Assembly (NCBI GenBank): GCA_963783335.1
Contig: CAWAND010000010.1
Location: 1,397,990 to 1,461,989 of the forward strand
Source of the DNA: an uncultured Chloroflexia bacterium
GTDB lineage: Bacteria; Chloroflexota; Anaerolineae; Anaerolineales; E44-bin32
DNA length: 64,000 bases
Direction of reading: 5' to 3'
The notes under the pieces are model-generated. The model was not told where the DNA came from and did no database searches. It saw only the letters and a list, made by a program, of their open reading frames with translations. Both the position numbers and the translations under genes were made by a program. Positions 63,144 to 64,000 of this stretch are shown in pieces; positions within the stretch are counted from its first letter, which is position 1, and every line of letters starts with the position of its first letter.

Positions 63144-64000
63144 ATGTCCACAGAACGCGAAAAAGCTCTTGATGCAGCCGTAGATCGCATCAAGAAACAG
63201 TACGGCGACGGTGCGGTGATGCGGCTGGGGGAGTCGGCGCATCAGGCGGTGGCGGCGATTCCGACGGGGTCGCTGGCGCTGGATCTTGCGCTGGGCGTGG
63301 GGGGCATCCCGCGGGGCCGGGTGACGGAGATCTATGGGCCGGAAGCGTCAGGGAAGACGACGCTGTGCCAGCATATCGTGGCCGAAGCGCAGAAGCTGGG
63401 GGGCGTGTGCGCCTACATCGACATGGAGCATGCGTTGGACCCGACGTATGCCAAGCGGTGCGGGGTGGACATTGACAATCTGTACATCTCGCAGCCGGAC
63501 ATGGGGGAGCAGGCGCTGGAGATCGCCGAGACGCTGGTGAGGAGCGGTGCGGTGGATGTGGTGGTGATCGACTCGGTGGCGGCGTTGGTGCCGCGAGCGG
63601 AGATTGAGGGGGACATGGGGGACGCCACGATGGGGGCGCAGGCGCGGCTGATGAGTCAGGCGCTGCGGAAGCTGTCGGGGGCGATCAAGCAGACGAATAC
63701 AGCCGTGATCTTCACCAACCAGCTGAGGCAGAAGATCGGGGTGATGTTTGGGAACCCGGAGACGACGACGGGAGGGGTGGCGTTGAAGTACTACTCGTCG
63801 GTGAGGCTGGATGTGAGGCGGATCGAGAGCATCAAAGTGGGGCAGGAGATCACAGGGAACCGGGCGCGAGTGCGGGTGGTGAAGAACAAGGTGGCGCCGC
63901 CATTTCGAGTGGCGGAGTTTGACATCATGTACAACGAAGGGATCTCGAAAGCCGGGGATCTGTTGGACATTGGGGTGGAGACGGAGTTGATTGAAAAGCG
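63144..64000 (+). CDS. recA: Recombinase A, 5' 285 codons (runs off right edge)
   Basis: Absent from ORF track because there is no stop in the window. ATG 63144. [47 protein letters not shown] (Walker A)..[45 protein letters not shown]. Confidence 0.95.

Follow-up and report, generated by a model that had tools for sequence, protein, structure and literature searches.

The duplicate genes tufA and tufB of Salmonella and E. coli undergo concerted evolution by gene conversion (PMC5485169). The two recA loci described here resemble this pair in that distant housekeeping copies are near-identical within a genome and diverge between genomes, and in that the converted tracts end sharply; the tuf twins of the source genome itself, which are 99.6% identical, behave alike. 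In contrast to tufA and tufB, the pair consists of recA genes, the core alone is converted while the promoters and both protein termini are paralog-specific, and the converted tract carries a private set of G-ending codons. Enterobacterial tuf genes use ordinary high-expression codons. Duplicate recA genes, recA1 and recA2, have been described in Myxococcus xanthus (PMC7029660). The present case shares with it the presence of two recA genes per genome, the regulation of which probably differs between the copies here, and departs from it in that the recA cores are not free to diverge. GC-biased gene conversion (gBGC) offers a further comparison. It has been proposed for eukaryotes and bacteria and is still debated in the latter; in its ordinary form, it would be expected to favor C over T wherever a codon ends in a pyrimidine. 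The recA cores resemble its products in the loss of A and T at silent sites (four-fold A+T of 0.07, compared with 0.26 in the flanks) and in a GC excess that rises with the recency of conversion, but the enrichment is strand-asymmetric, C is not favored over T, and the polarity varies by locus and lineage. Gene conversion of the recA pair is firmly supported and is a known kind of process in a new gene; what it leaves to be accounted for is the maintained, tract-limited G dialect. The literature that we searched, with incomplete coverage, contains no account of converted paralogs in bacteria that have a G-ending dialect of their own.

The window, by which we mean the whole stretch of 64,000 nucleotides that was analyzed (C10:1397990-1461989), is internal to a 1,864,348-bp contig (1.86 Mb) of an Anaerolineales metagenome-assembled genome (MAG) of 3.72 Mb, which comprises 10 contigs and is 89.6% complete. 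The recA1 gene has 340 codons and is cut by the window end, with its first 285 codons lying inside. Its translation matches the RecA profile PF00154 with an E value of 6.4e-135 over profile positions 1–262 of 262, and contains the P-loop GPEASGKTT. The next ORF carries RecX_HTH1 and RecX_HTH2 domains and is followed by an rny-like gene. In the reference collection, the RecA loci nearest to it come from Anaerolineales and Anaerolineae MAGs. No obvious SOS box or LexA-like box is present upstream of recA1. The original prediction had offered a chimeric join or strain collapse at the contig end as one source of the unusual codons; this explanation fails, since the locus is internal to the contig, recX and rny follow it, and the independent assemblies of relatives agree. 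The features discussed below are collected in Table 1.

Table 1. Coordinates of the recA1 locus and of related sequences in the source genome. Plain numbers are window positions; C10 and C2 are contigs.
Feature	Position	Strand	Remarks
recA1 CDS	63144..64000, stop at 64166 (genome-equivalent)	+	Heads recA1-recX-rny, downstream of aspS
recA1-specific 5' end, codons 1-19	63144..63200	+	Ordinary codon usage; unrelated to the recA2 5' end
Shared recA core (conversion tract and G dialect)	63201..64000, on to ~64091 (C10:1461190-1462080)	+
Long antisense open frame, 216 codons	63348..63998	-	Not a gene; from the ORF list and frame arithmetic
recA2	C10:1757659-1758778 (L035:2660-3779)	+
tuf twins	C10:1102772-1103974 and C10:1775843-1777045	+	99.6% identical; G4 0.80
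IS110-type transposase genes, two identical	C10:1832660-1833805 and 1845211-1846356	+	G-coded throughout; G3 0.55
Integrase-type (IS481-like) transposase, two copies	C10:674303-675250 and C2:66468-67517

Over the whole gene, recA1 has G at 0.60 of its third positions (G3) and C at 0.21 (C3). The mean G3 of the 2,713 long ORFs of the genome is 0.33 (SD 0.05). Among them, recA1 ranks first both for G3 and for the third-position skew (G-C)/(G+C), with a z score of about 5.3, which lies well outside what chance would produce. The per-gene comparison of third-position G and C that the original prediction had proposed bears it out. The prediction had also described the codon dialect as unlike that of every other gene in the window, and this holds as well: the 42 other long ORFs have a mean G3 of 0.346 (SD 0.04) and a maximum of 0.456. 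Its hand counts of codons prove essentially right on a recount of the core, in which Gly is encoded by GGG 24 times, Ala by GCG 23 times and by GCC 8 times, and Thr by ACG 12 times. The third letters are mixed over codons 1–23; from there almost all are G until about codon 315, after which a mixture returns for the rest of the gene. The unbroken G run starts at codon 24 (window position ~63213), in rough agreement with the predicted switch about 50 nt into the gene, and the dialect is switched off at about codon 315, past the window end and 25 codons ahead of the stop.

The composition of the core (codons 22–313) specifies the direction of this shift. Its four-fold sites contain G, C, A and T at 0.83, 0.09, 0.06 and 0.02, respectively, compared with 0.34, 0.40, 0.11 and 0.14 in the genome, and the combined A+T of 0.07–0.08 contrasts with 0.25–0.26 in the flanks and genome. 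At purine-ending two-fold codons G rises to 0.88 (genome, 0.68), while at pyrimidine-ending two-fold codons C is unchanged at 0.60 (genome, 0.65). Since only the sites with a synonymous G shift and the pyrimidine-ending codons do not, the effect is directed toward G and is not a general shift in GC content. Ordinary gBGC is a misfit for the same data, in which C drops from 0.40 to 0.09 at four-fold sites and C/(C+T) stands at 0.60 against 0.65. The dialect has one mechanical by-product. Each G at sense position 3 puts a C at the first position of an antisense codon, where it precludes a stop; the antisense frame of recA1 listed in Table 1 stays open for this reason, and its candidacy as a gene was rejected. 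Such a frame may be reported by ORF callers. In tuf, the same antisense-frame effect hid one copy in an ORF screen.

A second recA gene, recA2, lies 296 kb downstream of recA1 on the same strand and in the same replichore. The recA1 core (~890 nt) is 99.9% identical to C10:1757740-1758643. The alignment of the two genes has 99% identity over 904 nt and 99.9% over gene nt 64–939; outside gene nt ~58–948, identity is about 43%, and over nt 1–57 it is ~44%, which is chance level. The edges of the identity tract and of the G tract agree within four codons at both ends. At the 5' end, perfect identity begins at nt 58 and the G run at nt 70, 12 nt later; at the 3' end, identity ceases around nt 948, and within two codons of that point, at about codon 315, the G run ceases too. 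The private N- and C-termini of both copies have ordinary codons, and the dialect is limited to the converted tract. The G dialect marks a core of ~890 nt that gene conversion repeatedly transfers from one recA gene to the other, and it therefore represents neither misassembly nor DNA of foreign origin.

The two copies differ outside the core. The N-terminus of recA2 is longer than that of recA1, and its C-tail is long and acidic. Its promoter reads TTGACA ... GAACACTTGTGC ... TATACT, and a putative LexA-like box of the Cheo type, with one mismatch, lies between the -35 and -10 elements. The catalytic cores of recA1 and recA2 are identical as proteins, and any division of labor is therefore confined to the termini and promoters. 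The LexA-like box and acidic tail of one copy and the recX neighborhood of the other suggest that their regulation probably differs. Both halves of recA2 match PF00154, and the second half also matches RecA_C, but the frame is broken by the 1-nt insertion GATCG(A)ACTC at ~C10:1758123. The identical insertion occurs in both recA copies of the congener G002, and in the congener G001 both copies lack one G of a G7 run at about codon 50. These frameshifts in recA2 of the source genome, in G002 and in G001 are probably systematic long-read consensus errors and not inactivation; the shared indels make it doubtful that recA2 is a true pseudogene. The insertion falls at a GATC site.

The same arrangement is found in relatives. 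Two recA loci are present in three congeners (G001, G002 and G003) and in a genome of another genus (G007). Within these genomes the two cores are 99.5%, 96.5%, 99.9% and 100% identical, respectively, values that polishing of long-read assemblies may have inflated slightly. Across the five genomes including the source, core identity is 84–93% between genomes and 96.5–100% within a genome. All five pairs have ~40% identity outside gene nt ~58–948, and their tract boundaries lie at matching places. The type-1 locus keeps its aspS/recX/rny context in conserved synteny among the relatives, and the type-2 locus has a conserved gene for an ABC-transporter binding protein on one side, with ahcY adjoining it in the source genome, G008 and G009. 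The flanking genes have ordinary codons in seven genomes. Cores of G009 and G016 are also G-coded (G3 0.70), in assemblies that break in or at the repeat. In a tree of the core protein, the paralogs pair by genome, even for the diverged pairs of G022 and G036. The excess of within-genome over between-genome identity, the private termini and the pairing by genome together demonstrate concerted evolution of the recA core by gene conversion, in which the core evolves as a single sequence within each genome.

Comparison among lineages provides information on the age of the dialect. Between genera, the identity of the core at four-fold sites is 0.76–0.83, and independent draws at the same base composition would be expected to give 0.70–0.77. 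The four-fold G of the core is nevertheless 0.82–0.89 in every lineage. The silent sites have thus nearly turned over with G still high, and the dialect is maintained and is not the decaying relic of a transfer. Within the genus, young lineage-specific synonymous changes comprise 35 from G to another base and 6 to G, a count in which ascertainment disfavors the changes to G. With composition stable, this imbalance hints that departures from G are later removed, so that the bias toward G would act at fixation and not at mutation. A polarization of singletons across seven taxa (25 changes from G and 3 to G) was set aside as too ascertainment-biased.

A frame-aware scan of all genome ORFs of at least 80 codons detected the G dialect, beyond recA1, only in recA2, both tuf genes, two IS110 genes and part of an integrase-type transposase. 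In tuf, the dialect ends 22 codons ahead of the stop and identity runs to within 8 nt of it. The flanking fusA and rpsJ have ordinary codons; fusA, directly upstream of tuf, is C-leaning with a four-fold G (G4) of 0.31. Across the str, S10, spc and alpha operons, 30 pooled genes have G4 of 0.38 and C4 of 0.41. Together with fusA, these 30 ribosomal-operon genes reject a codon preference of highly expressed genes as the source of the dialect. The recA genes represent a second gene family, unrelated to tuf, with the dialect exactly over a conversion tract. The IS481-like transposase is G-coded only over about codons 40–130 of its C10 copy. The proposition that all repeats are G-coded was rejected, as about a dozen other repeat families of 88–99% identity have ordinary codons. 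The cumulative GC skew of C10 has its minimum near 0.8 Mb, where the replication origin likely lies. Both recA genes, both tuf genes and both IS110 copies are located at 1.1–1.85 Mb of C10 on the + strand. With an origin near 0.8 Mb, they would all be co-directional with replication, each pair forming a direct repeat within one replichore. In the replichore of the window, the + strand is the leading strand, which is consistent with the long run of + strand genes there.

To extend the comparison to the class, 250 of its genomes were sampled and 19 further two-recA pairs were fetched, and 28 two-recA genomes were analyzed. Across these 28 genomes, the more alike the two recA copies are, the more strongly a single base dominates their four-fold sites (rho 0.87) and the further their GC content exceeds that of the flanks (rho 0.68); both correlations are phylogenetically uncorrected and partly mechanical. 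In G036, G008 and G022, the recA pairs have diverged to 73–75% identity (73% in G036) and are not G-coded. The tuf pair of G036 is still converted and G-rich (G3 0.55), and G008 (0.66) and G022 (0.52) also have G-rich tuf, with one full-length copy assembled in each. In G038 and G035, a single tuf hit was obtained per genome, neither being G-rich.

The favored base varies within the class. In family f64, the converted recA cores of G164 (L088 and L089) and G129 (L090 and L091) are C-dominated, with four-fold C of 0.69–0.75. In G143 (L054 and L055) and G228 (L078 and L079), the first half of recA is C-rich and the second half G-rich, and the bias of the recA pairs is mild in G218 and G283. The idea that conversion always gives G was rejected on the basis of these C-dominated and mixed converted pairs. 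In G164, recA is C-rich while tuf is G-leaning; in G287, recA is G-leaning while the converted tuf pair is C-leaning. This opposite polarity of recA and tuf within one genome argues against a genome-wide cause in tRNAs or expression and for a tract-local cause. The extreme G-rich recA cases all belong to one clade and are effectively one evolutionary event.

On balance, we consider it probable, with some reserve, that the G dialect of the two converted recA paralogs stems from a fixation bias tied to conversion. Our best guess for the origin of the G preference is a strand-asymmetric bias of the conversion itself. The cores of recA1 and recA2 keep overwriting one another via non-reciprocal homologous recombination, and under such a bias the repair of heteroduplex between the copies would show a slight disparity between the strands. 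Over repeated conversion, this disparity would build up to the near-fixation of one base at silent sites. The favored base would here be G on the coding strand, which is also the leading strand, and the polarity may be set by the invading strand, giving G-rich, C-rich or switching tracts according to the locus. The dialect is kept in equilibrium at ~83–88% G at four-fold sites, under a persistent force that spares the termini, the neighbors and other highly expressed genes. Crossing-over between the direct repeats would delete hundreds of kb, so presumably only non-crossover conversion is tolerated. If strand disparity is the cause, the occurrence of the dialect in recA besides tuf would make it a property of converted DNA in general. 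The broader statement, that long-term conversion between paralogs with a strand-specific disparity drives silent sites to one base wherever DNA is converted, is put forward tentatively, as a possibility about which we are somewhat doubtful. Two observations fit a conversion bias poorly: the tuf dialect gives out 22 codons short of where the two copies cease to be identical, and several recent repeats in the genome have ordinary codons.

Among the alternatives, selection on RNA or translation survives best, and we regard it as unlikely. Here RecA and EF-Tu would be tuned to NNG codons, for instance to suit a certain subset of tRNAs during stress or to give the mRNA some property, and conversion would merely spread the sequence. 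Such tuning could explain a dialect that is stable over long times, would likewise predict the removal of young changes away from G, and agrees with the very high expression of EF-Tu and with the mildly higher G4 (0.47–0.50) of secY, adk, map and a 129-aa ribosomal-protein-like ORF. It is contradicted by the private recA termini, which lie on the same mRNAs and are not G-coded, by the C-leaning fusA within the tuf gene cluster, by the dialect of the IS110 transposase, and by the opposite polarities of recA and tuf inside G164 and inside G287.

Less likely still is a G-rich coding strand selected to promote recombination through Chi-like motifs, R-loops or G-quadruplexes. Runs of at least three G are twice as dense as in the genome, where they number 16 per kb; the recA core has 35 per kb and tuf has 27. 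No canonical quadruplex motif (loops of 1–7) was found in recA or tuf. Both genes show a 5- to 15-fold enrichment of the words GGTGG, GTGGTG and GGTGGCG, but this enrichment follows from Val-Val and Gly codons with a third-position G. The leading strand, on which Chi sites are oriented in model bacteria, carries every strong G tract; for Chloroflexota, a Chi sequence is not known. The C-dominated converted pairs elsewhere in the class also speak against this explanation.

An old horizontal replacement, in which the recA core (and tuf) came from a donor with G-ending codons and was then copied to both loci, is improbable to a greater degree. It would account for the sharp boundaries and the foreign-looking composition, and IS elements, which are often foreign, carry the dialect too. 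Yet in the protein tree the core falls within the family to which the organism itself belongs, and the 80 RecA loci of the reference collection that are closest to it include none with a recA G4 of at least 0.6 or flanks above 0.52. Moreover, the four-fold sites are near-randomized with G at ~0.85 and no amelioration toward the host value of 0.34, and even a relic would have to be upheld by some force. The original prediction had named a recent horizontal replacement of most of recA as its other possible explanation. What stands of it is the mosaic, in which most of the gene has been overwritten between sharp recombinational boundaries. The foreign source does not stand, since the overwriting sequence is the organism's own second recA and both the nesting of the protein and the 80 loci argue otherwise; nor does the recent date, given a dialect kept through near-saturating synonymous divergence. 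Finally, an assembly or polishing artefact, in which reads of another abundant organism or cross-mapped paralog reads overwrote both recA cores, is hardly credible, even for a MAG in which 1-nt indels of the kind common in long-read consensus recur. All the changes are synonymous and leave the protein intact, which sequencing error cannot achieve, and the locus is internal to its 1.86-Mb contig. Four other assemblies show the structure with a core of their own each; one of them, from another genus, is a MAG of 200 contigs that resembles a short-read assembly. The G002 copies differ by 3.5% and are hence resolvable, and the 80 closest RecA loci include no donor with the G dialect.

When a codon island of foreign appearance begins and ends abruptly in a core gene, it is normally taken as horizontal transfer or misassembly. 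The recA pair indicates that composition-based detectors of horizontal transfer and chimeras will misfire on converted paralogs. It also makes the recombinase gene itself a substrate of concerted evolution. The design of recA in these organisms is modular: each copy has its own promoter and tails, while the catalytic core is common to both, and two RecA forms can thereby differ only in regulation and terminal control elements. With recA, the idea of a conversion bias becomes testable in a second gene family besides tuf. If the monotony of silent sites is caused by conversion, it would allow the bias of conversion in bacteria, and its strand polarity, to be inferred from sequence alone. If true, bacteria would have a strand-polar process akin to biased gene conversion, legible straight from the genome sequence.
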